DNA of 64,000 nucleotides from Candidatus Amesbacteria bacterium (GCA_963736875.1 CAVTQH010000002.1:334663-398662), one strand, 5' to 3'. Shown: positions 34,814-63,903, counted from the first letter of the stretch. A program made the numbers and translations. The notes: generated by a model from the sequence alone, not told the origin.

Positions 34814-34814
34814 C

Positions 34815-36657: not shown

Positions 36658-36658
36658 T

Positions 36659-46389: not shown

Positions 46390-47328
46390 ATGAGCAAAGA
46401 AGTGGAACAGATAGCTGGGACTGAGAGTATATTTAAAATTGGACGACCGATACACTCCGACGGAAGAGGATTTTTCAGGGAACTACTTAGATTAAAGGAG
46501 CTGCCTTATCCCTGGAAAATTAATTCTCTGACCCATCATCAGGTATTACCAGGACGGGAATTTAAAATTCAATCAACATCCGACAATCAGTTAGTCTATC
46601 CGATTTCCGGAGAAGCTGAAATAAATATTCCGCAATCGGAAGAAAATATAAGAATTGATGACAGCATACGTATCGGCATTTTTATTCCCAAGGGACAGAC
46701 ACTGACAGTTCGGGCTCAAGAAATACGGGAAACTAATGTACTGGTTTTTTCCGACACCCGTATTAAAAATCAGAATTTTGAAATGGAACAGAAAACGCAT
46801 GGTTTGACCGCAATCCGAAGCCAGGCATCAGAAACTGAATTCGGCAGTTCCCGTCCTGTTTATGATATCGAATATACCAATGACACTCTGGGTACCCATT
46901 TTAAACCGGTACAAATCAATCACTCCCGGTCACTTCCGGGAGTCATACGGGGTTTGCACGCCGAAGCCTGGGATAAATTTATCTATCCGGTAACCGGAAA
47001 TATGGTGGCAGGATTGGTCTGGATTGGGTCAAAAGATGGATTCGGGGATAGACAGACGATAAATTTTTCGGATACTTCACGACCGGCAGTTTTTATACCA
47101 GAAGGATGGGCTAATTCCATCTGTGTCTTAAATAATAATACCGATAATATCCCGGTAGATTATATCTACTCAGTCGGAGCATACTGGACTCCCGATTCTG
47201 TCAGAAGTGTTCACTGGAACTCTGCGGGAATACAATGGCCGGTGTCTGAACCGATTATTTCTCAGAAAGATCAGGAAACCCCTGCTTTAGATGAATATTT
47301 CAAACAGCATTTCTCGTCAACTTCTTAA
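46390..47328 (+). CDS. dTDP-4-dehydrorhamnose 3,5-epimerase-like cupin protein with N-terminal extension
   Basis: The C-terminal half (RGLHAEAW...GLVWIGSKDGFGD...FIPEGWAN) resembles RmlC. The N-terminal 150 aa is a second cupin-like beta region. Confidence 0.55.
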   Translation: MSKEVEQIAGTESIFKIGRPIHSDGRGFFRELLRLKELPYPWKINSLTHHQVLPGREFKIQSTSDNQLVYPISGEAEINIPQSEENIRIDDSIRIGIFIPKGQTLTVRAQEIRETNVLVFSDTRIKNQNFEMEQKTHGLTAIRSQASETEFGSSRPVYDIEYTNDTLGTHFKPVQINHSRSLPGVIRGLHAEAWDKFIYPVTGNMVAGLVWIGSKDGFGDRQTINFSDTSRPAVFIPEGWANSICVLNNNTDNIPVDYIYSVGAYWTPDSVRSVHWNSAGIQWPVSEPIISQKDQETPALDEYFKQHFSSTS

Positions 47329-48022
47329 CCTTTTTCCACTCCTTTATCTCTCTATGATTTCCGGACAACAACACACCCGGGACTTTCCATCCCTTATATT
47401 CTTCCGGCCTGGTATATTGGGGATATTCAATATTATTACTGATTTGAGAAAACGACTCTTCCTTCAGAGATTCAGGGTTTCCCAATACTTCCGGCATAAG
47501 TCTGACCACCGAATCGATAATCACCATTGCCGGAATTTCTCCCCCTGACAATACATAATCACCTATGGAAATTATTTCATCGGCCAGATATTCATGTACC
47601 CGGTGATCCACCCCCTCATAATGGCCGCAAATAATCAGTAAATTTTCTTCCCGTGATAATTCTTCAGCTTTTTTCTGGCTGAATTTTTCCCCTCCTGCAT
47701 CCAGCAATATCACTTTTAAATTTTGGCTTGATAATTGCGATTTGATATCCGCAATTGCTTTATCAATAATATCCACTCTCATAATCATCCCCGCTCCTCC
47801 TCCGTAAGGCCTGTCATCCACCGATTTGTATTTATCCACAGCCCAATCACGCAAATTGTGAATATTTATTTTTACAACTGACTTATCCTGCGCCCGCTGC
47901 ACAATAGACGCATCCAAAGGCCCTTTAAACATTTCCGGGAAAAGCGTCAGAATATCGATACGCATATCCCAATTATAGCTAAAATACGCTAATATAACCT
48001 GTATGAAGGCAGTCATCATCAT
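47300..48022 (-). CDS. trmD: tRNA (guanine37-N1)-methyltransferase
   Basis: MRIDILTLFPEMF...PYGGGAGMIM. SPOUT-family knot motifs. Confidence 0.9.
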   Translation of the reverse strand: MMMTAFIQVILAYFSYNWDMRIDILTLFPEMFKGPLDASIVQRAQDKSVVKINIHNLRDWAVDKYKSVDDRPYGGGAGMIMRVDIIDKAIADIKSQLSSQNLKVILLDAGGEKFSQKKAEELSREENLLIICGHYEGVDHRVHEYLADEIISIGDYVLSGGEIPAMVIIDSVVRLMPEVLGNPESLKEESFSQISNNIEYPQYTRPEEYKGWKVPGVLLSGNHREIKEWKKVKKLTRNAV

Positions 48023-49181
48023 TCCTACCTACAACGAAGCCGGATCAATAGGTGCGATGCTGGATTATCTGATTAATAAAACTTTTCCCCAAATCAAATC
48101 CAAAGAAGGCGGCTTAACCAAAGATTGGGAAATGGAAATATTGGTCGTGGATGATAGTTCTCCCGATGGGACAGGCAAAATCGTCGAAACCAAATCCAAG
48201 ACATCCCCCTCTATCCATTTATTGGAAAGATCAGCCAAGACCGGGATAGGTTCAGCGTATTTGGATGGTTTTAAATATGCCATGGACAAATTACATGCGG
48301 ATTATGCGTTCGAAATGGACGGAGATTTCCAGCATCCGCCTGAAACGATTCCCCTTGCACTTAAGGCACTGGAAGATGGTTACGAGTATGTGATTGGATC
48401 CCGAAAAATTTCTGGAGGAAGTAATCCCAAAGGCTGGGGTTTCAAAAGACTGTTCTTTAGTGAAGTAGGCGGTCTGACGGCCAGATTAATAATGTTTTTT
48501 CCCTTTAAACATTTTTTTGACGTTACCGATCCTACCACCGGTTTTAAAGTCACCAAAGTCAGGGGAATACTGGATAAACTTGATTTAAATGGTTCTCACT
48601 TATATTCAAAAAGCTTTGGTTATAAGTTACAGCTACTTTACGAGACACTGGCTCTGGGTGCCAAGTATAAAGAGGTTCCCTTGGAGTTTAGAGTTCGTAA
48701 TGCCGGCGAATCCAAAATCGAAGCGCAAACTGCCAGGGAAATATTATTGGTGACTATTAAACTCCGCTGGCATGATGCCTTCACCCGGAAATTTCTCAAA
48801 TTCGGGACAGTCGGTTTTATCGGTTATTTGGTTAATGCCTCAACTCTGTATTTATTTACCCGGATGGGATTTCCGGGTTGGTTTGCCTGGGGCGGTTCCA
48901 CGGAACTGGCGATAATTTCCAACTTTACCTGGAATAACATCTGGACTTTTAAAGACCAGAAAATTTCGGGTATTTCCAAATTAGCTTCAAAATTTCTGCA
49001 GTTTAATTTTACTTCCGCCGGAGCCCTCCTTATTCAGGTCGTAGTCGGTTTGATCACGGACAGGATTATCGGCAGCGGATACCGGCAAATAGTCCTGCCC
49101 TTCACTATCCTGTTTTTAATCCTGCCCTACAACTATCTGATGTACACCCTGGTTATCTGGAAAACGAAGAAACACAAGTAA
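48003..49181 (+). CDS. GT2 polyprenol-phosphate glycosyltransferase (Dpm1-like) fused to C-terminal GtrA-like 4-TM domain
   Basis: IIIPTYNEAGSI, VVDDSSPDGT and DGDFQHPPE are GT2 motifs. The C-terminal KFLKFGTVGFIGYLVN segment is GtrA-like. Confidence 0.8.
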   Translation: MKAVIIIPTYNEAGSIGAMLDYLINKTFPQIKSKEGGLTKDWEMEILVVDDSSPDGTGKIVETKSKTSPSIHLLERSAKTGIGSAYLDGFKYAMDKLHADYAFEMDGDFQHPPETIPLALKALEDGYEYVIGSRKISGGSNPKGWGFKRLFFSEVGGLTARLIMFFPFKHFFDVTDPTTGFKVTKVRGILDKLDLNGSHLYSKSFGYKLQLLYETLALGAKYKEVPLEFRVRNAGESKIEAQTAREILLVTIKLRWHDAFTRKFLKFGTVGFIGYLVNASTLYLFTRMGFPGWFAWGGSTELAIISNFTWNNIWTFKDQKISGISKLASKFLQFNFTSAGALLIQVVVGLITDRIIGSGYRQIVLPFTILFLILPYNYLMYTLVIWKTKKHK

Positions 49182-49184
49182 GGA

Positions 49185-50258
49185 TCAGAGAAGGGGACCC
49201 CAGTCGGAAATTGCCACTGCGTTATGCAGGACAAAGTTAATAGTGTAGAAGAACAGTGGGATAATTAAAAGTCCCAAAGCCCACTTGACCTCTTTTCGGG
49301 AAAATATTTCCGCAAATCCCAGAAGTACCACCGGGACCAGAGGCAGGCTGTATCTGGCAATGTCTCTGTGAGACACAAAAAGAATTAATACGTAAAACAC
49401 CGCTCCGAATATTCCCCAGACCAGATCTTTTTTCAGCGCCCTGTATATCCCGATTCCGGCCAAAAGATATATCCAGATAATTTCTTCGAGCCAGATACTT
49501 CCCACCCAACCCTGATTAGCATCAAAGATTTTAAAAGGTAATAACTGTAAATGAATATTGTCTCCGGTATGAAAGTAAGCCCAAAAATCCCCGGTTTTGA
49601 GAAAGAAAAAGTAAGACAATGCCAGAAAAGTTAGTCCGATAATTCCCACCGGCCAGATTTTGAAATCAATTTTTTTAGTTTTTAAATAATTAATAACGGG
49701 CAGTAAACAGTAAGCCACCAGAAGAATTATTCCGGGAGACTTGGTCAGTACCGCCAGACCTCCGGTGATCCCCGAAAGCCAGTATTTCTTTTTGCCGAAA
49801 AAATAAAGCGAGGACACAACGGCTAATATAAATAGTGTCTCGGGACTGCCGACGGAGCGGACAGCCCACATCCGCGGCCACCAGAAAAGCCAGGCCAGAG
49901 TGATCCAGAACGGATCTCCCCATTTGTGCTCCTCGGCAATTTTATAGATGACATAAGTGCAGGCGACTGTTGCCAGAAGATTCACCATTACCATTGCCTG
50001 CAGATGATTCAGGCCGAGCAGGTTAACCAGGTTGATTAATAAAGGATACAGAGGAAAATGTGCCGGATAGTATTCCAAAGGCAAAGCAAATGAAAACATA
50101 TTCCGTATGATCTCCTTGTTGTACCAGGCTTTTGCCACCACGATATAATACGGACCGTCAAAATTCTGATAGATTGTTTTAGTGCCTACCGCTGCCCACA
50201 CCGCCAGCGTGCTTGCCACACAAATTATTGCCAGTTTTGAAACGTTGCTTAATTTCAT
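49185..50258 (-). CDS. polytopic membrane protein, probable GT-C-type glycosyltransferase
   Basis: About 10 TM helices. No soluble domain. Embedded in the glycosylation island. Confidence 0.45.
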   Translation of the reverse strand: MKLSNVSKLAIICVASTLAVWAAVGTKTIYQNFDGPYYIVVAKAWYNKEIIRNMFSFALPLEYYPAHFPLYPLLINLVNLLGLNHLQAMVMVNLLATVACTYVIYKIAEEHKWGDPFWITLAWLFWWPRMWAVRSVGSPETLFILAVVSSLYFFGKKKYWLSGITGGLAVLTKSPGIILLVAYCLLPVINYLKTKKIDFKIWPVGIIGLTFLALSYFFFLKTGDFWAYFHTGDNIHLQLLPFKIFDANQGWVGSIWLEEIIWIYLLAGIGIYRALKKDLVWGIFGAVFYVLILFVSHRDIARYSLPLVPVVLLGFAEIFSRKEVKWALGLLIIPLFFYTINFVLHNAVAISDWGPLL

Positions 50259-51913
50259 ACTTTTTGATATCGGTACTTTGATCTTACCACCGGCCAGGTG
50301 ATCGACACCAATACCATTGTTAACGAAATTATGCTGATCAGATTTGCCATGCGGTTTAAAGGCGGCTCCGTCAGTCTGGTTTCCACAATATGTTTTCCTG
50401 CAGGTATTTCCATGGTCAGCAATCCGTGGCTGTAAGGATTTTCAGGATCAAATAATTTTACTTCTTTCCCGTCCACATATGCCTTCCACCCCGGCCAGTA
50501 ATGGGTTTTATTACTTAAAATCCCGCCTTGGGGGGTTTCCGTATCCAGTTTGTGATAATTTGTTTTCCAGATAAGCGATTTAACCGTAAAATCTCCCTTT
50601 TCCGTTTTTGAAGCTTCGTACTTATGTAGTTGGTTAAATTCGTCAAAAGGAGAATGCCATACCGGTGTTTCTTCCAAAAGCAGGGTATATGTTCCCCTGT
50701 AACCCAGACTGTCTTGGGCCGGATCGGTCCAAGGTAGATATTGTTGAACTTTTGCATAGTCTTTGGTTGTCAAAACCAGTATTACCCACCCCGCCAAAAG
50801 AATGATCACCTTTTTTTTGTTAGAAATCATTAATTTTGACAAAAAGTAAGTTCCGCAAAAAACCGCCGCAGTGGTTGATACAAATAGCAATCGCCAGGGA
50901 AATTGCACTGCCCTGAGGGGAGTTAGAATTTTCCAAAACGGTAGACTTGATTGCGTCATCATAAATATCGCAATGGCAAACACCGCAAAAAAGTAGATGC
51001 TGAGTTTAAATGCCGCTTCTTTAGCAAATTTTCTTTGTCTGAAAAACCAGATACCCAACCAGCCCAGAAATATTACCAACACCCCGGCTCCCAGCTGAAC
51101 GGACATATTTACCCGACCGGTGGATCCGATTCCCTCATAACTCCACGGCGAATAAATCAGCTGTTTAATCGTCACAAAACCGTTTTTCTCCAGAAAGTAA
51201 TTTTCAATCCGGTCAAGATATGTCAGGTTTTTATACAAAATTGCCGGGAGAATATAAAAAGCTGCATTCAAATATCCCCAGGCTATGGCAGTGATTCTTT
51301 TAATATCAAACCCCGTATATCCGATCCAAATCACCCCGAAAATCAGACCGTAAAAAGGGTGGGCCAAATATCACCAGCGTAATCATCAGAGCTGCTATTG
51401 CGATCGATTTCCAGCTTTTCCGCGGTTTTATCAATCGCCCAGAAGGATAGAGGTAGAATCGTGGCAGCCACCGTTTCTCCGAGTGCCCCCCGGACATAGA
51501 CATTTGCCAGATGATAGGGCAGGTATGCATAAGTAAGTCCACCCAAAAAACTTGGCCATGAACCGAAATGCCGCTTAAGCCAGAGATAGGCAAAAAAAGC
51601 ACTGAACGGAAAGGACATGGCCAGAACCAGTTTAAATGCCGTAACCGGGTCGACTCCCGAAAGCATTACAGCCGAAGTCAGATAATAAGGTAGGGTATAG
51701 GAAAAGGTAAAAGTGGGCTGTCCCAGACCGTAATTCAGTCTTTTTGCCCACCGGGGAGGGAAATTACCGTCTTTTAATGCGTTGAAAAATTCCTACCGAT
51801 TTAAATACGGTTGCTTCCCCGTCGTGTCCGGAAATCATTCCCGGATGCCTCAGGGCTTTATAAGCCGGAAAGGTTAATCCCAAAAAAAGCAAAAAGATCA
51901 GAAGATTTTTCAC
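50255..51913 (-). pseudogene. membrane protein of the PTPS-related/YfhO-like family, interrupted by two 1-nt frame changes
   Basis: The N-terminus (GTG at 51913, VKNLLIFLLFLGLTFPAYKALRHPGMISGHDGE), the middle (ORF 51343..51666, YAYLPYHLANVYVRGALGE) and the C-terminal part (50255..51367) lie in three frames. The junctions sit at T5/A5 runs. Paralog of 59317..61009. Confidence 0.5.
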
Positions 51914-51947
51914 CTTCTAAATTATACTCAACCGGGGTGATTTTGGT

Positions 51948-52661
51948 ATGATTAGCCAAATGATAGGGGAGCTTTCAGTCTTTTTTCCCTGCTACAACGA
52001 GCAGGATAATATCGAACAAACGGTAAAAAAAGCCAAACCCGTTTGTAAAAAATATTTCAAAAACTGGGAAATGCTTTTGGTCAACGACGGCTCCAAAGAC
52101 AAAACAGGGGAGATAATTGATAGTCTGGCAAAAAGTGACCGAAATGTAAAACCTATTCATCATCATCCCAACCGGGGTTACGGCGCGGCTTTAAAAAGCG
52201 GATTTTATTCCGCCAAATATCCCTGGGTGGCATTTACGGATGCCGACGGCCAGTTTGATTTTAAGGAGATTTCGGAGTTTATTGCCACTCAGGAAAAGAC
52301 CAAAGCCGATCTGGTAATCGGGTATTACCGTCACCGGCAGGTACCTTTTTCCCGGAAACTGAATTCTTTCATGTGGCAGGTGGTGGTATTTCTGCTTTTC
52401 GGTCTCAGAGTCCGCGATATCGATTGCGGTTTCAAGCTTATTTCCACCAGGGTTTTTAATACCATTCCCAAACTGGAATCGGAAAGAGGAGCCTTTATCA
52501 GCAGTGAATTATTAATCAAAGCCAGAAAGGCCGGATTTAAGATTGTGGAAATTCCCGTCACCCACTATCCGAGAGTTGTCGGTCACGGCACGGGTGCGGA
52601 TTTAAACGTCATTATTAAAAGTTTTCTGGATCTTTTCCGTTTATGGTTCAAACTGCATTAA
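51948..52661 (+). CDS. GT2 glycosyltransferase (polyprenol-phosphate sugar transferase type)
   Basis: FFPCYNEQDNI, LVNDGSKD, DADGQFD. Confidence 0.8.
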   Translation: MISQMIGELSVFFPCYNEQDNIEQTVKKAKPVCKKYFKNWEMLLVNDGSKDKTGEIIDSLAKSDRNVKPIHHHPNRGYGAALKSGFYSAKYPWVAFTDADGQFDFKEISEFIATQEKTKADLVIGYYRHRQVPFSRKLNSFMWQVVVFLLFGLRVRDIDCGFKLISTRVFNTIPKLESERGAFISSELLIKARKAGFKIVEIPVTHYPRVVGHGTGADLNVIIKSFLDLFRLWFKLH

Positions 52662-52739
52662 AACGCCGGGAAATAATCTGCCTGGCAGTTATTCTGTTGG
52701 TCTGCAGCGTTTCTGCGCCTTTACAAAATCCCGGATTAC

Positions 52740-54107
52740 ATGACTTTTCTGGGAGATGAAGGACGGGATGCGCTGGTGATGCGAAATATTGTTTTGGGAA
52801 GGCATTTTCCCCTGATCGGCCCCGGCACCTCCATCGGCAATATGTATCTGGGTCCTCTCTATTATTATCTGGTTGCCCCGTCGCTTCTTATTTCCGGCTT
52901 TTCTCCTCTCGGCCCGGCAGTTGAAGTGGCTGTCATCGGGATTCTGACGGTCGGTCTGCTGTGGTGGATAGGCAGGCAATGGTTCGGACCATTCGGAGCT
53001 CTTTTAATATCGGCTCTTTATGCAGTTTCCCCGGTGGTGATCACTTATTCCCGCTCTTCATGGAATCCGAATATCATGCCGTTTTTTGCCTTGCTTACAA
53101 TCTACAGTCTGTGGCAGGTATGGCGCAATCACCGCTGGCCCTGGCTGATCGTCTCAGCCGTCGCTTTCGCTTTTGTTCTTAACTCTCATTATTTAGGTCT
53201 GTTACTCGCTCCCACAATTGGAATATTTTGGCTGATTACCGCTAAAAAATCTTTAAAGACCTCAATCGTGTCCTTCCTATTACTATTACTACTACTATCC
53301 CCCCTGCTTATTTTTGACATGCGCCACAATTGGACAAATTTTAATGCCCTTAAAGCTTTTCTTACGGACCGCCAGCAGACTGTAAATTTCAAAGCCTACA
53401 AAGCCATACCCAATCTTTGGCCTATATGGGCGGATATCAACACCACTCTGCTTGCCGCCGGAAATATTCAGTTGGGATTTATCACGTCCGCGTTGCTGGT
53501 TCTATTACCGGTTCTGATACTGGTTAAACAATTAAAGTCGAAAAATATCTCACCTGAGTTAATGTTGGTTATGGTTTGGATAGGGTTTGGTCTTTTAGGA
53601 CTCGGCCTTTACAAGCAGCATATTTATGCCCATTACTACGGTTTTATTTTTCCCGCCCCCTTTCTGCTTTTAGGTTCTATTTTTAAATATTCCCATCGTC
53701 TTCTAAAATATCTTTTAGCCGGATTTATACTTTTCCTTCTGCTGTTTAATTTAATAAACAACCCCTTTCGCTCCTCGCCCAATCTGCAGCTGGAGCGGAC
53801 TTCGCAAATAGCCTTAGTAATAAACCAACAGGCTCTGGGGCAACCTTTTAATCTGGCCCTGATTGCCAAAACCAATTATGATGCCGGATACCGCTATGCC
53901 CTGCAATTATTGGATAGTCCTTACTTTACTATCCATGACCAACTGGCTGAACAGTTATTTGTCATCTGCGAAATTGACTGTGAACCGATAAATAATCCGC
54001 TGTGGGAAGTCGCCGCTTTCGGGTGGGCAAAAATTGATAAGATTTGGGAATTCCCCTGGGGGGGAGTCAAGCTTTATCGGTTAATTCATAATCCGTCCGG
54101 ATCATGA
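52740..54107 (+). CDS. GT-C membrane glycosyltransferase (ArnT/PMT-like), tandem paralog 1
   Basis: N-terminal motif GDEGRDALV...LIGPGTSIGNMYLGPLYYYLVAP, shared with the next two genes. About 12 TM helices. Confidence 0.6.
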   Translation: MTFLGDEGRDALVMRNIVLGRHFPLIGPGTSIGNMYLGPLYYYLVAPSLLISGFSPLGPAVEVAVIGILTVGLLWWIGRQWFGPFGALLISALYAVSPVVITYSRSSWNPNIMPFFALLTIYSLWQVWRNHRWPWLIVSAVAFAFVLNSHYLGLLLAPTIGIFWLITAKKSLKTSIVSFLLLLLLLSPLLIFDMRHNWTNFNALKAFLTDRQQTVNFKAYKAIPNLWPIWADINTTLLAAGNIQLGFITSALLVLLPVLILVKQLKSKNISPELMLVMVWIGFGLLGLGLYKQHIYAHYYGFIFPAPFLLLGSIFKYSHRLLKYLLAGFILFLLLFNLINNPFRSSPNLQLERTSQIALVINQQALGQPFNLALIAKTNYDAGYRYALQLLDSPYFTIHDQLAEQLFVICEIDCEPINNPLWEVAAFGWAKIDKIWEFPWGGVKLYRLIHNPSGS

Positions 54108-55579
54108 AAAAAACATTTATCATAACCATTATTTTGGCCCTGGCCTTGTTTTTACGTACATATCGGGCTTCCGTCCTGACCGGCTTTTATTTTGACCAGG
54201 GAAGGGATGCCAAAATAATTTGGGATTTATGGCATTCGCACAAATTTTTCCTCATCGGTCCCACTACCGGAATAGAAGGCATTTTTCTCGGCCCCTTTTA
54301 TTATTATCTGATTGCGCCTTTCTATCTTTTGGGAAACGGGAATCCGGTCGCCGCGGCAGTCGGCCTGGCCTTAATCTGCACGATCGGGATTATTGTCATC
54401 TATGAAATCGGCCGGAAGTACTTTAATCCGGTTGCCGGTTTTATTACCGCAATACTGGCGGCCTGTTCTCTGAGTATGGTCCAGTCTCACCGCTGGCTGT
54501 CCAACCCCACTCCTTTATATTTGTCTTCCGCCCTGGCCCTGCTGCTGCTTCTCAAAATTGTCTTCGGTTCCAAATCCGGATGGGTCTGGTTTCTCTTTGG
54601 TTTAATGCTGGGGGTCAGCCTTCATTTCGAAGCGGCTTCTGCCGTATTTTTCCTGCCCGCCACCCTTCTGATTTTTTTGTGGTTCAGAAAAGACATAGTC
54701 TGGCAATTTAAAAACCTGATTCATCTGGCTTTTGCATTCCTGATCACTCTGCTTCCCCAGATAATTTTTGATCTCAGGCACGACCATATCCTGGCTTTGG
54801 CCTTCGGGAAGTTTCTGATAACGGAGAAAAGTTTCACCCCGTCCGGAAGCGGATTTATTTTGGATCGCCTGAACTTTTATTATCAGTCATTTTCGAGTCT
54901 TATCACCCTGGATAAAACCCCGGCAATTGTGATTTCCTTATTATTACTGCTGTTAACTGTTATTGTTTGGCGCTTTATACCCAAAAAACCGCTGACGGTC
55001 GTCCTCATTTGGCTTCTTACTCCCATGTTCTTTTTGCTGCTGTACCGGGGGAATTACGGTTATGTCTGGAGCTATTACTTTACCGGAGTATATTTGGTTT
55101 TTATGCTTTTAACCGGTGTGGTTTTATCCTATGCATATACCTGTCCCCGGATTCCTTTCCGTAAAGGTTTGGTGGGTGTTTTAGTCTCTTATTTTCTTGT
55201 CTGGAATGGTTTTCATCTTTATCATTACCTGCGCGCCAATCCGGACGGACCGGAAGCCATAATGCTGGGTTCGTCTTTACCGGCTGTTGACTGGGTTTTT
55301 AAGGATGCCGGCGACCGGTCTTTCAATGTTGACGTTTATGTTCCTCCGGTGATATCCCATGCCTATGATTACCTGTTTCTCTGGCGGGGTGATACCCGTT
55401 ACCGCCGTCAGCCGTCTTCCGACCTTCAGCCGCTGCTTTACACTCTTTATGAAGTCGATCCTCCACATCCCGAGCGTTTGGAAGCCTGGCTGACGCGTCA
55501 GGCCGGTATAGCCGTTCCCAAAACCAGTATTAAATTCGGCGGGGTTACGGTAGACCGGCGTCAGCGGATCAATAAATGA
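54104..55579 (+). CDS. GT-C membrane glycosyltransferase (ArnT/PMT-like), tandem paralog 2
   Basis: FDQGRDAKI...LIGPTTGIEGIFLGPFYYYLIAP. Overlaps its neighbours (ATGA). Confidence 0.6.
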   Translation: MKKTFIITIILALALFLRTYRASVLTGFYFDQGRDAKIIWDLWHSHKFFLIGPTTGIEGIFLGPFYYYLIAPFYLLGNGNPVAAAVGLALICTIGIIVIYEIGRKYFNPVAGFITAILAACSLSMVQSHRWLSNPTPLYLSSALALLLLLKIVFGSKSGWVWFLFGLMLGVSLHFEAASAVFFLPATLLIFLWFRKDIVWQFKNLIHLAFAFLITLLPQIIFDLRHDHILALAFGKFLITEKSFTPSGSGFILDRLNFYYQSFSSLITLDKTPAIVISLLLLLLTVIVWRFIPKKPLTVVLIWLLTPMFFLLLYRGNYGYVWSYYFTGVYLVFMLLTGVVLSYAYTCPRIPFRKGLVGVLVSYFLVWNGFHLYHYLRANPDGPEAIMLGSSLPAVDWVFKDAGDRSFNVDVYVPPVISHAYDYLFLWRGDTRYRRQPSSDLQPLLYTLYEVDPPHPERLEAWLTRQAGIAVPKTSIKFGGVTVDRRQRINK

Positions 55580-57088
55580 AAAATATTCTAATTCCGGTAC
55601 TTCTCATAGCCCTGATTCTCGGTCTGATACTTCGCGGCTATCAGTTTAAAGAGAGATTTTTGTATGCACATGACAACGATCTGGCCGGCTGGATTGTTAA
55701 AGATATTGTCATCGATCACCATCCTGCGTCTAATCGGTCAGGAAACTTCTGCCAAAGGGATTTTTATCGGCCCTCTCTTTTATTATTCGCTGATTCCGTT
55801 TTACCTGATTACCGGCATGGATCCGATTGGATCACGGATATATTCCCTGATTATCGGTTTGACTGCCATCTGCAGTCTGTATTTTGTCGTCAACAGGCTT
55901 TATGGCCGCCGCCCGGCCGGCATTGCCTCTCTCATTTATGCGGTTTCGTTTCTAATTTCCCAGACTGAACGGGAAGTCGTCCCCACCACTACCGTCATGT
56001 TGTGGTCAATCTGGTTTTATTATTCAGTCAATCTTATTTTCCGGGCAAAAAAGTCCGGTCTGCTTTTAGCTTCCTTTTTACTGGGTTTGGTCTGGCATAT
56101 CAATTTAGCCCTGATTCTGCTTTCTCCTCTGGTAATCCTGGGTGTATTCCTAAATCACAAAAAATATCTTCTCAGAGATTTTTTCAAACCGGTCATCATT
56201 CTGTTAATTATGTCACTGCCACTGTTTATTTTTGAAATCCGTCATAACTTTTTACAGACCAGATCGCTTTTTGGTACAGTTTTTGAAAATTCCGCCGTTT
56301 CAGGCATCCCTGCGGTCTCTTTTTCGGACAAAGTTTCACACGTGGTAAGTTTTGCTTTCAAAAACGCCACCCGGATATTTTTTATTCCGGAATTTGTTTT
56401 TCCTGAAAATATTATTCCCGTATTTCTCACAATCATGCTGCTGGTACTGGTGATCACCCGCAGGATCCCCGGATATACAGGAACAATTTTTATTTTATGG
56501 ATGGGTCTGTATATTCTTTTCTTTACTCTTCACCCCATAAATCTTTCCGAATATTACTTAAACGGGATGAATATATTTTGGCTGATTATTGCCGCTGTCA
56601 CTATGGGCAGAATCCTGCCCAAATTTATATCCGCCGCAGTTCTTTGTTTTCTTATTTTTTACAACCTGAATATGTTTCTTTCTTCCCCGATAAACGCCAG
56701 CGGATATTTACCGAAGAAGGCATTGATGGAATTTATCTATACTGATGCCGCAGCGCACGATTATCCCTGCGTCGCCTTTTCCTACATCACCAACCCCGGT
56801 TATCAGTTCGGATACCGTTATTTTATTTATCTGAAGGGTTTGAAAACCGCTCCGCCTTCATCCGGAGCCCCGGTTTATTCGGTGGTCTTTCCGCATTCCT
56901 TGGTTGACCGGATAGATAAATCTTTCGGAGCCATAGGGCTGGTTTTACCCAGATATTCCCGCTATGATCAGGAGGCGGTACAAGTCAGTTGTTCGGGTGA
57001 AAACTCGAATCTGACCGATCCCATGTTCGGCTTTACGATACCAAGTAAATATGTCCGTGTATCTTTCAGTTATCGTTACCAACTATAA
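55576..57088 (+). pseudogene. GT-C membrane glycosyltransferase, tandem paralog 3, N-terminus frame-shifted
   Basis: The N-terminal 50 aa (ORF 55576.., FLYAHDNDLAGWIVKDIVIDHHP) matches the paralog motif. The remainder (ORF 55664..57088, LIGQETSAKGIFIGPLFYYSLIPF) is in the +1 frame. The junction lies near 55727-55738. Confidence 0.5.
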
Positions 57089-57797
57089 CGAAGAGGAAAA
57101 CCTCAAAAAAGGGGCATTGGATGAGATTTATGATTATTTGAAATCCCAGGACTATTCCTTCGAAATGGTACTGGTCAATGACGGTTCCGCGGATTCAACT
57201 CTGACTTTGTTAAACGCTTTCTCCAAAAACCACCCGGAAGCAAGGGTGATCAATAATCCTCATATGGGTAAGGCTGCCGGAGTCATCACCGGAGCCCTGG
57301 CGGGGATCGGGGAGATTATTCTTTTTACCGATACCGATCAATCCACTCCCATTTCAGAATTTGCCAAGTTCATTCCGTTATTTGAGCAGGGTAAGGCCAT
57401 AGTTATCGGGTCCCGGCCCAGCCGTCCCGGAGCTCCGCTGTTCCGCCAGATATTGGCCTTGGGTATGGTTGTCCTGCGGACTCTGGTTTTACAGCTTCCG
57501 TACCGGGATACCCAGTGCGGATTCAAGGCTCTGACTGCAGAATCTGCCCAAAAAATATTTTCCGCCATGAAACGGATTCATCCGCTCAAAGCCATCGGCT
57601 ACCCGACCACCAATCCGGGTTTTGACCTGGAAATTTTATACCTGGCTCGAAAATACGGATATGAGGTGGGAGTTGTACCCGTGCAATGGTCATACCGTGA
57701 AAGCAAGCGGGTCACCTTTTTCAAAGACGCAATTAACGGCATCAAAGAATTATTACTGGTCCGCTGGCGGTCTCTGACCAATGCTTACCGGAATTGA
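57051..57797 (+). CDS. GT2 glycosyltransferase (dolichyl/undecaprenyl-phosphate sugar transferase-like)
   Basis: LSVIVTNYNEEENL, LVNDGSADST, FTDTDQS. Confidence 0.8.
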   Translation: MSVYLSVIVTNYNEEENLKKGALDEIYDYLKSQDYSFEMVLVNDGSADSTLTLLNAFSKNHPEARVINNPHMGKAAGVITGALAGIGEIILFTDTDQSTPISEFAKFIPLFEQGKAIVIGSRPSRPGAPLFRQILALGMVVLRTLVLQLPYRDTQCGFKALTAESAQKIFSAMKRIHPLKAIGYPTTNPGFDLEILYLARKYGYEVGVVPVQWSYRESKRVTFFKDAINGIKELLLVRWRSLTNAYRN

Positions 57798-59320
57798 ATA
57801 TGCCAACAAAATCCCGGCTTAATCCCAGATACCGGATTGTTCTGTTAATCACAGCCGGAATTCTCGTACTTGCTGCCGTCATCCGTTTTACTCATCTGAC
57901 TCTGCTGCCGGTTTTTGCCGATGAATCGATTTACCTTCGCTGGGCTCAGGTCATGCGGGCGGAATCCACTTTGAGATTTTTACCTCTTTCGGACGGTAAA
58001 CAGCCTTTATTTATGTGGGCGGTGATTCCGTTTATGAAATTTATATCCGACCCCTTATTGGCCGGCAGGGTATTTTCCGCGCTTTGCGGTTTGTTTACCA
58101 CAATTGGAATCGGGGTGGCGGGTTATATCCTTTTTTCCAACTTCAGGCTGGCTTTATCCGCATCTCTTTTATGGGCGGTTATTCCCTATGCCGTATTTTT
58201 TGACCGGATGGCTTTGGCCGATGGACTCCTCGCCATGTTTATGGTCTGGACTTTCGTATTTTCCGTCCTGTCACTTCGGTATCTGCGGTGGGATTTGTCC
58301 ATGCTTGCGGGATTTACTTTGGGCTTCGCCTGGCTGACCAAATCTCCGGCCATATTTGCTATGGTTTTGATCCCGGCGGGTTTATTGCTGGTGGAGTGGA
58401 AACATCTCAGGGGGATCAGAAAGGTTGTTCCTCTGATTCTGATCGGTACCACTTTTATTATCGGATTTGCCATGTATAACATTCTGCGTTTGGGACCCGA
58501 GTTTCATCAGATAGCTTTAAGAAACCGGGATTATGTTTTTCCGTTATCTGAGGTTATCTCCCACCCCACTGATCCGTTGATACCCCATTTACGCGATGCA
58601 ATCGGTTTTTACCTGTATCTTGTCACTCCGCTGGGCTTGGGTTTTGCTCTTTTGGGAATAGCCGAGGGAGGTTTGCGCCATTGGCGTCAGCGGTTGATTT
58701 TACTGCTGTGGTGGCTGGTACCGGTTATTTCCCAGTCATTTGTAGCCAAAGCGTTTACTGCCCGGTATCTGCTGTTTACGGTTCCGTTTTCGCTGATACT
58801 GGCTTCCCATGGATTATGGCATTTCGGTGACCGGACTCAAAAACACTTCCTTTCCCTGACAGGTTTGATATTAGTCGTCTGTTTAAGTTTGGGATATGAC
58901 TATTTGCTTTTAACTGATCCTCAAAAAGCTCCGTTGCCGCGGATTGAACGTTCGGGATATATGGAGGAGTGGACGGCAGGTTACGGCCTGAAAGAGGCAG
59001 CCGGTCAAATCAGAAGCAGTGCGGCTTCAGGGCCGGTAGTTATCGGTTCCGAAGGTTACTTCGGGACTCCTTTCAGTGCCATGCAAATGTACTTAAATGA
59101 TGTTTCAAACGTCCGGATAGTCGGATTAGGAACGGTTTTAGGTTATCCCGATCCCAAGCTTACTTCAGCCCGGGCGGAAAATCAGATTTTTGTAGTATTC
59201 AATTCCACCCGCATTCCCCGCGATCCGGCAGACTTGGGTTACGAAATTCTGGGTTCCTACCCCAAAGCCGTCCGTCCGGACGGCTCCCGTGAATATCTGC
59301 TTCTGATGAAATTGAAATGA
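57794..59320 (+). CDS. ArnT/PMT-family GT-C glycosyltransferase (COG1807-like)
   Basis: The first-loop motif FADESIYLRWAQ (a DE motif) follows TM1. About 11 TM helices plus a C-terminal soluble domain. Confidence 0.7.
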   Translation: MNMPTKSRLNPRYRIVLLITAGILVLAAVIRFTHLTLLPVFADESIYLRWAQVMRAESTLRFLPLSDGKQPLFMWAVIPFMKFISDPLLAGRVFSALCGLFTTIGIGVAGYILFSNFRLALSASLLWAVIPYAVFFDRMALADGLLAMFMVWTFVFSVLSLRYLRWDLSMLAGFTLGFAWLTKSPAIFAMVLIPAGLLLVEWKHLRGIRKVVPLILIGTTFIIGFAMYNILRLGPEFHQIALRNRDYVFPLSEVISHPTDPLIPHLRDAIGFYLYLVTPLGLGFALLGIAEGGLRHWRQRLILLLWWLVPVISQSFVAKAFTARYLLFTVPFSLILASHGLWHFGDRTQKHFLSLTGLILVVCLSLGYDYLLLTDPQKAPLPRIERSGYMEEWTAGYGLKEAAGQIRSSAASGPVVIGSEGYFGTPFSAMQMYLNDVSNVRIVGLGTVLGYPDPKLTSARAENQIFVVFNSTRIPRDPADLGYEILGSYPKAVRPDGSREYLLLMKLK

Positions 59321-61009
59321 AAAAAGATTTGATATTAATTCTTCTGCTGCTTCTTCCCGCCGTTGCCTGGCTTTTTCAGCCGGGATATCTTTCCATGCAC
59401 GATGATCTTCAGGCTTTCCGGCAGAAAGCTTTAGACGAATGTTTCCGGGACCGGCAGATCCCCTGCCGCTGGGTTTCAGAAATGGGTTATGGTTTCGGAT
59501 ATCCGCTTTTTAATTACTATCCCCCCCTGCCTTATTTAATCGGTCAGCCGTTCCGATTTTTGGGTTTCCAGTATCTTGATGTGGTCAAAATTGTCGGGGT
59601 AATCGGATTCGGTATTTGTGCATTAAGCATGTACTTTTTGGGCAGGCAGTTTTGGGGTAGGGGAGGAGGATTGATTTCTTCCCTGGTCTATACATATGCG
59701 CCTTACCATTCGGTGGATTTTTACGTCCGCGGAGCCATGAACGAATTTTGGGCCATGGCCATTTTTCCCGCCATTTTCTACACTTCTTACCGGCTGATAT
59801 CCGGCCGGAATAATAAATGGATTCCCCTGCTTTCATTATCAGTTGCGGCTTTGATGCTCTCGCACAATCCCATGCTGATGATATTTACCCCGGTATTGCT
59901 TGCCTGGTGCGTGTTTTGGCTTTGGAAATCGCGTTCCTGGAAACGATTTACACGCTCTGGCAGTTTCTGCTTTCTGGTCACTTGGTTTGGCCGCCTTTTT
60001 TACTCTTCCGGTAATTATCGAATCGCGTTTTGCCCATGTGGAGACCCTTACCATCGGCTACTTCAATTTTTTGGCCCATTTTCTTAACTTAAAGCAAATC
60101 TTTTTGCGCATCAATTGGGGTTACGGAGCATCGGTTTTGGGTTCGGGTGATGAAATGAGCTTTGCTTTGGGCTATCTGCAGTGGATCCTGCCGGCTCTGG
60201 TATTAATTTCTGTGTTATTTATCAAAAAACTCCGCGAAAATAAATTATTAATCCTATTACTATTACTGTTTACTGTTACTGCTTTATTCCTGTCCCATTA
60301 CCGCTCAACTCCCATATGGCTCAAATTTAAACCTCTGGAATTTCTCCAGTTTCCCTGGCGTTTTCTTACTTTGGCTGTCTTTTCAGCATCGTTTTTGTCC
60401 GGTGCAGTAATATTTGTAAATAAAAAAATACTTTCCCTGTTACTGTTACTGTTACTGTTACTTAATGCCAACTACTTCCGCCCCCGGGTTTGGTATCCGG
60501 ACATGACCGACGCTTCAAAATTTTCCGGGGACTCTCTCCGTTTGCAGGTTACAGCCAGCATTTTTGACTATCTGCCGATTTATGCACCGCTTCCGCCTCC
60601 CAATCCCGCCGGAGGTGATCTGGGAATAACCGGCGGGGAAGGGACTTTCACCCGGCTGGCCAAACGCTCCAATTTTCAGCAATACGAGGCGGACATCACA
60701 ACTTCAAAAGCAACGATAGAGCTGCAGACATTTTATTTTCCCGGCTGGCGGGTGTGGCTGGACGGAAAAGAAGTAAAAATCGATCCCTCCCGTGACCCGC
60801 TTCTCGGGCGGATGCAGATTGATGTCACTTCCGGCCGTCATTTGGTTACCGCCCGTTTTACCAACACCCCCATCCGAACTTTTGGTAACCTGCTGTCACT
60901 GGTCTCCTGGTTAATCCTCCTTGGCTGTTTGATTCCCAGAAAATCGGTGTACAATGGCAGGTATGTCTTTACCCGAAGTCAGGTGTCATCGAATAACGAT
61001 AAAAGCTGA
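59317..61009 (+). pseudogene. membrane protein of the PTPS-related/YfhO-like family (paralog of 50255..51913), frame-shifted
   Basis: ORF 59317..60087 (YAPYHSVDFYVRGAMNEF) and ORF 59900..61009 (QFPWRFLTL...FYFPGWRVWLDGKEVK) lie in different frames and overlap by 188 nt. Both halves are homologous to the halves of the 50255..51913 gene. Confidence 0.5.
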
Positions 61010-61259
61010 TTTTGATGTTTTTACCGAAAAGTTTGAGGAAATTGCCAGGTCATCCGGGGGCGGGGAATTCAAACTAACTTCACTGGCTTCCCCTGACAGA
61101 GCCAGGGTTAGGTCTCTGATAGGTGTGCACGAAATGTATCACAAAAAATTAAGTAAAAATCCGGAAGATCTGATGTCCGAAGCGGGTGTGATATTGACTA
61201 ATGCGGACTTACCGCCCCAACTTCAGGAAGAACATCCAATTTAAGGCTATAATCAATCC

Positions 61260-62735
61260 ATGGACGCGGAAGTGACGCTGGGGGATGTGGACCTGGCCAC
61301 AGTTAAAGCCAGGTCGGTATCGGGAATTGTGACTTTGATCAGCCGGTCTTTTGTGATTCAGCTGGTATCAACATTAGGATTTTTTCTGCTTTCGGTGTTT
61401 CTGGCCCGCCCGGAAATCGGATTGTTCATCGCCGTCAATGAATTAGTCTCCATTCTGGGATATTTTTCCGACATCGGTCTGGCAGCATCCTTAATCCAGA
61501 AAAAGGATAAAATTACTCTGACCGACCTGCGGACCACTTTCACTCTTCAGCAGATTCTGGTTCTAGTACTATTACTATTTACTATTACCATTTCCCCCTG
61601 GTTATTCAGCTACTATCATGTTTCCGGCGGGGGAGTCTGGCTGTTTTTCAGTCTTTTAACGGCTTTTTTTCTGGCATCTTTAAAAACTATTCCTTCGGTG
61701 GTTCTGGAGCGCCAGCTGCGGTTTGAAATTTTGGCCTTTGTGGAAATTATTGAGACTCTGATTTTTTATCTGGTAGCTGTGACACTCGCCTGGCAGGGGA
61801 GGGGAGTTGCCTCTTACGCCTGGGCTGTTCTTCTCAGGGGTTTTATCGGTACATCCCTGATTTATTTTCTGGCTCCCTGGAAAATCGGTCTGGCCATATC
61901 CAAAACCAGTCTCAGGTCATTATTATCCTTCGGTCTCCCCTATCAGATCAATACTTTAATGGCGGTCGTAAAAGACAGATTCTTAAATATTTTCCTGTGG
62001 AAAATAATCGGCGCTGACGGGGTGGGAATTATCGGTTGGGCCCAGACCTGGTCCCAGAAACCTCTGCGCTTTATCATGGACAATGTCACCAAGGTTACTT
62101 TCCCCGGTTTTGCCAGGCTTGCCGATCATCCGCAGGAACTGAAACAGGGAATAGAAAAAACGCTTTTTTTCATTTCTCTCGTAACTTTCCCCATAGTCGG
62201 CGGTCTGGCGGTACTTGCCCCCTCCCTCGTCGGATTGATTCCCAGATATTCCAAGTGGGAAGTAGCTTTGATACCCTTGGCTTTGTTTTGTTTCAACAGC
62301 GCCTGGGCTGCCGTATCCACTCCCTTAACCAATACTCTGAATGCTTTAGGCCGGGTAAAAATAAATACTTACCTGATGATTATGTGGACGGCACTTGCCT
62401 GGATACTGACCCCTTACATGGCGGTCAGATTTGGTTTTGTAGGTGTGGCTTATGCTTCAGCTTTAATTTCTTTAACCTCGGTTATTCCCGTAATTATTAT
62501 TAAGCGTCTGACTCATTTCAGTTTGTATTTATCATTTATCCGGCCGGCAGTAGCAACTATGGTTATGTTGACCGTGTCTTATCTGTTTACCGTTTCTTTT
62601 ACCGTTACTATTTATAATTTAATTCTGAACGTCATCATATCCGGACTGGTCTACGGTTTAGTTATTTACGGTTTGGTGGGTCCGGCCCTTTTAACAGATG
62701 TCCAAAAACTTTTGGCCGTTTTTAAAAACAAATAG
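61260..62735 (+). CDS. Wzx-like oligosaccharide flippase (MOP superfamily polysaccharide biosynthesis protein)
   Basis: 491 aa with about 14 TM helices. The N-terminal region is typical of polysaccharide biosynthesis (Polysacc_synt) proteins. Confidence 0.7.
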   Translation: MDAEVTLGDVDLATVKARSVSGIVTLISRSFVIQLVSTLGFFLLSVFLARPEIGLFIAVNELVSILGYFSDIGLAASLIQKKDKITLTDLRTTFTLQQILVLVLLLFTITISPWLFSYYHVSGGGVWLFFSLLTAFFLASLKTIPSVVLERQLRFEILAFVEIIETLIFYLVAVTLAWQGRGVASYAWAVLLRGFIGTSLIYFLAPWKIGLAISKTSLRSLLSFGLPYQINTLMAVVKDRFLNIFLWKIIGADGVGIIGWAQTWSQKPLRFIMDNVTKVTFPGFARLADHPQELKQGIEKTLFFISLVTFPIVGGLAVLAPSLVGLIPRYSKWEVALIPLALFCFNSAWAAVSTPLTNTLNALGRVKINTYLMIMWTALAWILTPYMAVRFGFVGVAYASALISLTSVIPVIIIKRLTHFSLYLSFIRPAVATMVMLTVSYLFTVSFTVTIYNLILNVIISGLVYGLVIYGLVGPALLTDVQKLLAVFKNK

Positions 62736-62791
62736 CCACTGGTGGCTGATTATCTTGGGTTCGGTTATTTGGTCTTTGACCATGGTAAAGA

Positions 62792-63903
62792 GTGGGTCTG
62801 ACCTACTCTTACGGAGTAGGTTTTTGGGGTCCCAACGGTCATGACGGCGTCTGGCATTTGTCCTTAATTGAAAGTCTTTCCCGGGGAAGTTTGGAAATGC
62901 CGGTTTTTGCCGGAGAACTGATCAGAAATTATCACATCGGATTTGATCTCTTGCTGGCTTTAATTCATCGGCTTTCTTTTATTCCGGTAAGTGTTTTGTA
63001 TTTTCAGCTGATCCCTCCCCTGCTGGCTTTCGGGATTGGTTTCTCTGTCTGGAAATTTATGCTTTTATGGACCAAAAGCCGTTCGGCTGCCATGTGGGGT
63101 TTGTTTTTTGTTTATTTTGGCGGCAGTTTCGGCTGGCTGGTAAATTTGCTTCGTGGTGCGGGTTTGGGCGGAGAGTCTATGTTCTGGGCTCAGCAAAGCA
63201 TCTCCACACTGATAAATCCCCCGTTTGCCCTGTCACTTTTAATAATATTCTTTGTATTGTATTTAATCCAAAAACCCATTTCCGGAAAAAAATTAATATT
63301 AGTCTCGCTTCTTATCGGTTCCCTGGTCATTGGTCAAAATTTATGCCGCGATTTTGTTTCTGCCGGGATTGGCATTGTCCGCTCTTTACAATCGTAAATT
63401 ACTCAAGCTTTTTACTTTTGTCTTCTCTCTTTTCCCTGCTTTTTTACCTACCGTTTAACCGTCTGGCCTCGTCCCTGATAGTTTTTCAGCCCTTCTGGTT
63501 TATCGAAAACATGCTTGCCCTGTCAGACCGTTTTTTCTGGCCCCGGCTTTACAGCGCGATGATTGTCTACAAAACCACCCGTAACGTGATTAAATTTATT
63601 CCCGCTTACAGTCTGGCGATATTGATTTTTCTGGCAGGTAATCTGGGTGTCCGCATGTTGGGTTTGGTTAAAATCAGAGAGCTGAAAAAAACCGACCCGG
63701 TAAATATTATTTTGTGGGTCATAGCTCTCCTGGGTTTTATTTTCCCCTTATTATTTATCCAGCGGGGAACCCCCTGGAATCCCATCCAGTTTTTCTACTA
63801 TTCGCAATTTGCTCTCGGTCTGTTTGCTGCCCGGATTATATCCAAATTAAACATCAAATACGGGATATTAGTCGTTACTGTTAACCATTCCTACCACTAT
63901 TAA
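62792..63903 (+). pseudogene. polytopic membrane protein (possible polymerase/ligase of the glycan pathway), split over three frames
   Basis: ORF 62792..63397 covers the N-terminal TM helices. A third frame between about 63300 and 63440 reads KIYAAILFLPGLALSALYNRKLLKLFTFVFSLFPA. ORF 63067..63903 carries the C-terminal TM helices, and its first 100 aa are junk. The second junction lies at a T6 run (ctgcttttttacc). Confidence 0.4.

Follow-up and report, generated by a model that had tools for sequence, protein, structure and literature searches.

Multi-component transmembrane glycosylation, as described by Rismondo, Gillis and Gründling, involves a GT-A synthase that makes a C55-P-sugar, a GtrA- or Wzx-type flippase and a GT-C transferase that hands the sugar over outside the cell (PMC8035078). 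CsbB/GtcA/YfhO, GtlA/GtlB, GacI/J/K/L, CsdAB/CD/EF and GtsABC are examples, and the definition takes in both Wzx-type flippases (GacK) and soluble GT2 enzymes that need a membrane partner (GacI/GacJ) (PMC8035078). Here we analyse a stretch of 64,000 nucleotides from Candidatus Amesbacteria bacterium (GCA_963736875.1 CAVTQH010000002.1:334663-398662), called the window below, in which one locus, from position 48003 to beyond 64000, encodes three GT2 synthases, eight GT-C-type proteins and one Wzx/MOP flippase according to the open reading frame (ORF) listing, Pfam and fold comparison. The synthase, flippase and transferase of the published definition are encoded together here, and this arrangement is kept in 82 related loci. 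We hold, with a probability of about 0.78, that the locus is a conserved operon set of Microgenomates (candidate phyla radiation, CPR, or Patescibacteria) for a large multi-component transmembrane glycosylation system.

The locus resembles the Gram-positive systems in placing a GT2 synthase beside a PMT_2- or YfhO-type GT-C, in having a GtrA- or Wzx-type flippase and in belonging to a monoderm host. The partnership of soluble GT2 and membrane protein seen in GacI/GacJ has its likeness in a fusion of one synthase (GT2a) with one transferase (GT-C paralog 1) in relatives, and rml genes lie nearby, as they do in the Gac and Rgp loci. Where the Gram-positive systems consist of single pairs, a single conserved locus here combines three synthases with eight GT-Cs. 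Its proteins are also remote from those already described, with no NCBIfam model over cut-off and no sequence matches in the PDB, one of its GT-C families has no Pfam model at all, and no lipoteichoic acid (LTA), wall teichoic acid (WTA) or rhamnan is known in CPR bacteria.

Lipid-sugar synthases, flippase and GT-C transferases

An earlier note on this DNA, made from the sequence alone, had listed three GT2 polyprenol-phosphate sugar synthases, one of them fused to GtrA, and Pfam recovers all three. The fusion (48003-49181, plus strand) matches GT2 at 2e-23 and GtrA_DPMS_TM at 9e-14 and aligns over its full length (residues 1-352) with the dolichyl-phosphate mannose synthase (DPMS) of P. furiosus, 5MLZ (E 1e-43); the DxD motifs VVDDSS and MDGD can be read from its sequence. 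Judged by this alignment, it is a DPMS-type polyprenyl-phosphate hexose synthase with a built-in GtrA/DPMS membrane domain of four transmembrane (TM) segments. The best solved relatives of GT2a (51948-52661, plus strand, Pfam GT2 2e-30) are ArnC (2e-17) and GtrB (5e-13), and those of GT2b (57051-57797, plus strand, Pfam GT2 1e-19) are DPMS 5MLZ (9e-12) and GtrB (6e-10); a scan for hydrophobic segments found no membrane anchor in either. DxD is present in the GT2s and their closest characterised relatives are lipid-P-sugar synthases. Since the solved relatives of all three are DPMS, GtrB or ArnC, they stand nearest to enzymes that load a sugar on polyprenyl phosphate. The NCBIfam near-matches (PgfS, AglJ, ArnC, PpgS and Dol-P-hexose transferase) all stay under cut-off.

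The Wzx flippase of the earlier note was also recovered. The protein encoded at 61260-62735 (plus strand) matches Polysacc_synt_3 at 5e-42 and Polysacc_synt at 6e-11, has the multiple hydrophobic segments of the Wzx/MOP family and is 79% identical to its ortholog in L001, one of the two relatives that carry the whole locus intact.

GT2a and GT-C paralog 1 form one polypeptide of about 715-743 aa in 17 related loci, mostly from Amesbacteria (for example L003:7824-10004, L008, L009, L011 and L013-L017). As read from its domains, such a protein would join a cytoplasmic lipid-sugar synthase to an extracytoplasmic transferase, a natural GT2-GT-C polypeptide.

Three GT-C paralogs lie in tandem on the plus strand: paralog 1 (52643-54107, ORF fragment 52740-54107, Pfam PMT_2 2e-14), paralog 2 (54104-55579, intact, PMT_2 9e-13) and paralog 3 (55576-57088, ORF fragment 55664-57088, PMT_2 5e-8). 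The earlier claim of three ArnT/PMT-like proteins with a common motif stands for the genes and for the first two sequences; D..(G)RD...LIGP.T......GP.YYYL.AP stands out in paralogs 1 and 2, whereas paralog 3 has a degenerate version. Loop 1 of paralog 2 holds two invariant residues, D31 and D35. Its AlphaFold2 model, built on a 30-sequence alignment, reached a predicted local distance difference test score (pLDDT) of 91. Foldseek comparison with the PDB gave ArnT 5F15 (5e-9, TM-score 0.59), ALG12 (TM-score 0.63) and ALG9, followed by AglB, STT3, PglB, Pmt4, AftB and PimE, with identities of 11-17% (13% to ArnT 5F15); the matches to ArnT, ALG12, ALG9, AglB, STT3, PglB and Pmt4 all have a probability of 1.00. 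On the strength of the model, paralog 2 is a generic GT-C whose fold gives no acceptor call.

The top position of ArnT 5F15 among these folds, and of ArnC among the sequence matches of GT2a, brings to mind ArnC/ArnT (GT83), with which the locus shares the logic of a lipid-P-sugar donor and a GT-C. The JGI product names would point to aminoarabinose being added to lipid A or some other lipid, which is nevertheless very unlikely. Patescibacteria are monoderm (PMC11665869); the host has no lipid A; the identity to ArnT is 13%; arnA, arnB, arnD, arnE and arnF are absent from the locus; and the NCBIfam equivalog models are unmatched, with no ArnT match and 37-67 bits for ArnC against a cut-off of 529. 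Despite the 'ArnT-like' labels of JGI, the GT-Cs did not classify as lipid A or arabinose transferases.

A further ArnT-like enzyme with a DE motif, likewise claimed before, is indeed encoded at 57794-59320 (plus strand). Its gene is intact, the motif reads FADE, and D43 and E44 of loop 1 are invariant in 30 orthologs. It passes both Pfam PMT (PF02366; 31.5 bits, cut-off 22.7) and PMT_2 (32.6 bits). The L001 ortholog of paralog 1 also passes PF02366, with 29.6 bits, and in the window the ArnT-like protein alone does so. PF02366 covers GT-Cs with non-protein acceptors too, so that passing it does not establish a protein acceptor.

Two genes were described as PTPS-related and YfhO-like paralogs. 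Both match Pfam PTPS_related, a YfhO-clan family: copy 1 (50255 to about 51900, minus strand), which carries two frameshifts and whose intact L003 ortholog scores 4.6e-13, and copy 2 (59317-61009, plus strand, 2e-9). In these proteins H27 and D28 are invariant. The second half of the description fell short at the level of the family model, as YfhO itself (PF09586) reached 12.6 bits, in a C-terminal stretch of the L003 ortholog, against a cut-off of 28.5.

The earlier inventory missed one gene, that of a polytopic 357-aa protein at 49185-50258 (minus strand), convergent with the GT2-GtrA gene and just below the Pfam thresholds: GT87 gives 5.8e-5 (23.4 bits, cut-off 25) and PMT_2 2e-4 (21.9 bits, cut-off 26.1). 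N32, D34 and G35, which follow the first TM segment (TM1), are invariant, hhalign against the ArnT-like family gives 46%, and the NCBIfam family AZOBR_p60025 ('cell surface glycopolymer formation') scores 51 bits, under its cut-off. Going by these sequence features, it is probably a small GT-C, the eighth of the locus.

The terminal polytopic protein of the earlier note (plus strand, from about 62725 to beyond 64000) was present, with the correction that it is itself a GT-C and that its gene, seen as tblastn pieces, leaves the window. At least 1439 proteins belong to its family, every one of them annotated 'hypothetical', and Pfam has no model for it. The AlphaFold2 model of the L001 ortholog (pLDDT 85) found STT3 (2e-7), DPY19 and PglB as top folds in Foldseek, then ArnT and AftA, at TM-scores of about 0.5 and 10% identity; the C-terminal domain partially matches that of AglB, and H39 and D40 are invariant. 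By the fold of this model the terminal protein is a GT-C. We could rule out that it is a true oligosaccharyltransferase of the STT3/PglB/AglB family: despite the STT3 top matches, the WWDYG motif (searched as WWD or W[WYF]D[YWF]G) occurs in none of 32 terminal GT-C sequences.

Placement in the GT-C superfamily is based on fold for paralog 2 and the terminal family, on Pfam PMT_2 or PMT for paralogs 1 and 3 and the ArnT-like protein, and on PTPS_related for the two PTPS genes. Each GT-C family tested has an invariant Asp shortly after TM1. Profile-profile comparison (hhalign) linked the family of paralog 2 to the ArnT-like family (92.9% over 341 columns) and the latter to PTPS across the loop-1 region (73.7%); links to the small and terminal GT-Cs were weak. 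The dedicated cell-surface glycosylation system that the earlier note had proposed, with lipid-linked donors and GT-Cs, gains support from the solved relatives of the GT2s and from the folds of paralog 2 and the terminal protein.

Beyond the domain content, folds, synteny and fusion that were observed, we infer, as likely, a mechanism in which each of the three GT2s would load the sugar of one nucleotide sugar on polyprenyl phosphate at the cytoplasmic face, as homology to DPMS, GtrB and ArnC suggests. The lipid-P-sugars would then cross to the outer face by way of the GtrA-type domain of the first synthase, the Wzx-type MOP protein, or both. Only one synthase has a GtrA domain, and the Wzx-type protein could plausibly flip the remaining lipid-P-sugars, as proposed for GacK. 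The eight GT-Cs (three PMT_2 paralogs, one PMT/ArnT-like, two PTPS_related/YfhO-clan, one small GT87-like and one STT3-like terminal protein) would each pass a sugar to an extracytoplasmic acceptor. Paralog 1 is the probable docking site of soluble GT2a; both are one polypeptide in the 17 relatives with the fusion.

Several points weigh against a glycosylation system of this kind. Activity, sugar identity and acceptor are not readable from sequence, and the assignment of the gene at 49185-50258 as a GT-C comes from sub-threshold matches. No NCBIfam model reaches its cut-off for the proteins of the locus. A PDB profile search with four GT-C families (A2-A5) found nothing below E = 0.1, for which reason fold comparison was used instead, and the terminal family was examined by fold only. 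No priming phosphoglycosyltransferase, LCP ligase or teichoic-acid gene was seen in the neighbourhoods examined. Finally, with five of the GT-C genes frameshifted, this strain may lack a fully working system.

Synteny, age of the paralogs and frameshifts

The seven plus-strand genes between 51948 and 61009 overlap (by 4-38 nt) or abut, which gives them an operon-like look. A promoter and terminator scan of the locus stayed at the level of shuffled sequence (29 against 28.5 and 31 against 24.2) and was uninformative.

The set of 82 related loci used here comprises L001, L003 and 80 loci returned by a scan of GTDB species genomes, in which at least 152 genomes had a paralog 2 ortholog; many of these loci end at contig ends. 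The 80 GTDB loci come from Amesbacteria, Woesebacteria, Blackburnbacteria, Shapirobacteria and unclassified Microgenomates. More than 1400 homologs of paralog 2 were found, all in Microgenomates-type CPR bacteria, named GT39 or 'ArnT-like' and at best 76% identical; an exact-sequence look-up showed paralog 2 itself to be absent from the collection. Absence from relatives, which would have spoken against the earlier proposal, was not what we found: the cluster is present in them, and L001 and L003 carry the whole locus intact in the same order, at 65-79% and 40-70% amino-acid identity, respectively.

Compared ORF by ORF, the loci share a consensus order. It starts with trmD on the minus strand and the GT2-GtrA gene on the plus strand (65 of 82 loci), followed on the minus strand by the small GT-C (66/82) and, optionally, PTPS copy 1. 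The remaining genes are all on the plus strand: GT2a, paralog 1 (77/82), paralog 2 (82/82), optionally paralog 3 (42/82), GT2b (79/82), the ArnT-like gene (74/82), one to three genes of the PTPS copy 2 type (68/82), Wzx (55/82) and the terminal GT-C (45/82), which always comes next to Wzx. PTPS copy 1 has orthologs in only 5 of the 82 loci and is therefore lineage-specific.

Two terms that the earlier note used for the cluster, 'island' and 'tandemly expanded', are misleading. A horizontally acquired island could be ruled out by the uniform GC content (0.43-0.48 in the locus, 0.40-0.51 in the remaining window) and the class-wide synteny over the 82 loci. A recent tandem expansion could be ruled out as well, given that paralogs 1-3 are 24-29% identical to one another and 64-71% identical to their own orthologs (64.5% for paralog 1 and L001). 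The paralogs being closer to their orthologs than to each other, the duplications must be ancient and predate the split of these lineages.

Other observations concern the gene content and composition of these regions. The PTPS_related gene forms a tandem of three copies, flanked on one side or the other by an extra GT2, in L027, L031, L046, L050, L055, L056, L059, L063, L071 and L079, and additional PMT_2 genes are found in other related loci, so that the GT-C copy number of the cluster varies by lineage. In 34 loci of the Woesebacteria type, a gene of about 330 aa for a DHH-family phosphoesterase lies between paralogs 1 and 2 on the same strand (e.g. L037:8977-9969); its homolog in the window (38% identity) sits elsewhere, at 28482-29060. 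Among the records L005-L084, many are titled 'uncultured Gammaproteobacteria bacterium', one 'Clostridia' and one 'Bdellovibrionales', yet they carry the Microgenomates-specific cluster, and the titles of these metagenome-assembled genomes look like placeholders or mis-assignments. GC skew is negative in nearly all 2-kb bins of the window from 1 to 64000 (cumulative -1.44), and AT skew is strongly negative across the plus-strand membrane-protein genes (minimum -0.29); unusual strand composition disparity is mentioned for a complete Microgenomates genome (PMC7143001).

In tblastn with intact orthologs, the pieces of five of the eight GT-C genes fell in different frames, with at least nine single-base shifts in total over 15.9 kb; the ORFs of the earlier note are consequently fragments for these five. 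PTPS copy 1 runs through frames -1, -2 and -1, with shifts near 51400 and near 51800, and the Pfam match lies on its N-terminal fragment. In paralog 1, a +1 shift near 52697 (frame 2 to 3) cuts TM1 off, and the joined N-terminus matches the relatives exactly. Paralog 3 has one extra base at 55723, between the end of frame 1 (55722) and the start of frame 2 (55724); its L001 ortholog reads through this point without a break. PTPS copy 2 changes from frame 1 to 2 by a +1 shift at 59944-59947, its pieces being 64-73% identical to L001, and the terminal gene has at least four +1 shifts, with pieces in frames 1, 2, 3, 1 and 2.

In the other 48 kb of the window two shifts were found, near 26040 in the C-terminus of sodA and near 29000 in a DHH/NrnA-like gene, so that frameshifts are not confined to the glycosylation locus. 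The sodA gene (25524-26140) has a +1 shift after which the C-terminus goes on in the next frame as ...DYLDAWWNVINW, and the DHH/NrnA-like gene (28461-29480) likewise has a +1 shift, with about 150 aa more in the next frame.

We consider that the frameshifts are probably assembly errors of the insertion type, although the clustering itself is left without an explanation. An error-like bias is seen in that 10 of the 11 shifts are +1; the shifted genes have no in-frame stops and show no extra divergence (64-76% identity to L001 orthologs, against 51-79% for intact genes), housekeeping genes (sodA and the nrnA-like DHH gene) are affected too, and the orthologs are intact in nearly all relatives. 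These observations speak against the alternative that the locus is decaying in this strain, with real frameshifts and five of eight GT-C genes as pseudogenes, which we regard as unlikely and which is in any case a separate matter from the function of the intact system. What favours decay is the concentration of at least 9 of the 11 shifts in the 16-kb locus, at a density about 14 times that elsewhere (binomial P about 1e-4), together with the intact state of long ORFs outside it (929, 1496, 820, 777 and 610 aa) and sites free of long homopolymers or a link to methylation motifs.

Two technical causes of the clustering were tried and rejected. Homopolymer runs of at least 5 have nearly equal density in the locus and in the rest of the window (9.5 and 8.25 per kb), and the sites are not long homopolymers. 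As for methylation, short motifs such as CCWGG and GATC occur as often in the locus as elsewhere in the window, and 3 of the 11 junctions lie near CCWGG, roughly as expected by chance.

Polymer or protein as acceptor

For the acceptor we lean slightly, at somewhat under even odds, towards a glycopolymer of the cell envelope or a lipoglycan, possibly containing rhamnose. The genes rmlA, rmlB, rmlC and rmlD immediately precede the cluster in 13-21 related loci, a context no less fitting for a polysaccharide than for a protein, and further cytoplasmic GT2s are encoded downstream of the cluster or within it in relatives. Just upstream of trmD in the window, a tandem RmlC-like cupin (46390-47328, plus strand, Pfam dTDP_sugar_isom 2e-22), a possible accessory of the locus, has two halves that both match RmlC of relatives. 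In contrast to the relatives with full rmlABCD, we found no rmlA, rmlB or rmlD anywhere in the 64-kb window. The weak match of the small GT-C to a family for cell surface glycopolymer formation also counts for a polymer, as does the scale of the system: no bacterial machinery known for protein O-glycosylation has as many as eight transferases and three donors. A Pfam PMT_2 match is not evidence for a protein target, because the PMT_2 GT-Cs that are paired with a GT2 in Firmicutes mostly act on LTA, WTA or rhamnose polysaccharides (PMC8035078).

The earlier note had thought of an O-mannosylation-like system that decorates the many proline- and threonine-rich (PT-rich) linker proteins of the window, and these proteins are real: six ORFs have segments with at least 65% P+T, several with signal or TM segments at the N-terminus and sortase-like C-termini. 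That the GT-Cs O-glycosylate such linkers in secreted, sortase-anchored, S-layer or pilus proteins is plausible, though we would not bet on it. There is experimental precedent in streptococci, where GtrB with the YfhO-family PgtC2, and PgfS/PgfM1, glycosylate Ser/Thr-rich disordered linkers outside the cytoplasm (PMC12041528). The streptococcal systems GtrB/PgtC2 and PgfS/PgfM1/PgfE/PgfM2 (PMC12041528, PMC5856776) likewise combine a GT2 synthase with YfhO-clan or other GT-Cs, and they act on low-complexity linkers outside the cytoplasm, some of them in wall-anchored adhesins; the window is rich in such linkers and also has a sortase. Among NCBIfam models, PgfS comes closest to two of the GT2s, but it scores 53-66 bits against a cut-off of 500. 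In contrast to the streptococcal poly-Ser/Thr, the linkers here are rich in Pro and Thr; PTPS_related and not YfhO is the model that the GT-Cs match, and a PgfE-like epimerase is absent.

The same mechanism could also be likened to actinobacterial Ppm1/Pmt (GT39), since a DPMS-type GT2 is accompanied here by one GT-C that passes Pfam PMT and has an invariant loop-1 DE (57794-59320). PT-rich secreted proteins are the classical targets of Ppm1/Pmt. Unlike in that system, only this one of the eight GT-Cs passes PF02366, and the other seven have no counterpart there. The best folds of the terminal GT-C are the protein-modifying STT3, DPY19 and PglB, a ranking that leans on TM-scores of about 0.5 and 10% identity. 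LTA, WTA or rhamnan serve as acceptors of PMT_2 and YfhO enzymes in monoderms no less often than proteins do (PMC8035078), no feature specific for mannose or for protein acceptors was found, and eight GT-Cs with three donors go far beyond any bacterial O-glycosylation system on record. With eight transferases at hand, both polymer and protein acceptors may occur.

Some of the PT-linker proteins have features of their own. The protein of 578 aa at 9597-11333 contains a module of about 190 aa twice, nearly identical at the protein level (PVPTVPPPGGQTL.FTPTDDAVIYASNP...NPPQLVVT), a sign that it was duplicated in tandem within the gene very recently. At 34073-35570 and 36001-38315, PT-linker surface proteins occur as two pairs of neighbouring paralogs; the second pair ends in GLASTGN or GLAFTGN plus a hydrophobic tail, directly followed by a sortase-like gene (37722-38315). 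These proteins are candidates for wall anchoring and for being targets of glycosylation.

Many GT-Cs fed by GT2-made polyprenyl-P-sugars, next to a MOP-family flippase, are also found in the mycobacterial PimE/AftA-D/Emb and the endoplasmic reticulum (ER) ALG3/9/12/6/8/10 plus oligosaccharyltransferase lines. By analogy, Wzx might flip a lipid-linked glycan that ALG-like GT-Cs then extend on the outer side of the membrane with polyprenyl-P-sugars and an STT3-like terminal GT-C transfers en bloc to protein. The folds shared with those assembly lines (ALG12, at TM-score 0.63, and ALG9, which paralog 2 matches as well as it does ArnT; STT3, PglB and AftA for the terminal GT-C, with its partial AglB C-terminal match), the constant adjacency of Wzx and the terminal GT-C and a GT-C number similar to that of the ER pathway favour this idea, which we nevertheless consider improbable. 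GT-C fold similarity is generic and unaccompanied by similarity at the sequence level, WWDYG is missing, no priming phosphoglycosyltransferase lies nearby, and a lipid-PP-oligosaccharide is without evidence; Wzx-type proteins can also flip polyprenyl-P-monosaccharides, as proposed for GacK (PMC8035078). Unlike in those lines, the genes form one operon-like cluster here. Equally improbable would be its fullest form, a Microgenomates counterpart of the ER lumen with a Wzx/Rft1-like flippase, DPM1/ALG5-like synthases, ALG-like GT-Cs and WWDYG-less STT3-like transfer to PT-rich proteins; if true, the glycans would sit on PT-rich surface proteins that mediate the episymbiotic lifestyle.

A proposed glycosylation system in Microgenomates

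The multi-component transmembrane glycosylation system that we propose belongs to a type of machinery already known, and public annotation labels its genes GT2, GT39 or ArnT-like. No description of this cluster turned up in our literature searches on GT-Cs and glycosylation in CPR bacteria. Novelty lies in its scale, as a genome of about 1 Mb has three synthases and eight GT-Cs at a single conserved locus, in the naturally occurring fusion of GT2 and GT-C, and in a large family of GT-Cs that no Pfam model covers.

Two complete Woesebacteria chromosomes with the cluster measure 0.92 and 1.08 Mb. Although their genomes are only about 1 Mb, Patescibacteria devote some 16 kb (about 1.5%) to extracytoplasmic glycosylation and preserve the gene order in several candidate phyla. 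The three donor synthases, the GT2-GT-C fusion and the large uncharacterised GT-C family are candidates for the surface chemistry of CPR bacteria. That streamlined epibionts dependent on their surface conserve the cluster in this way suggests a central role of its glycan in envelope integrity or host contact.

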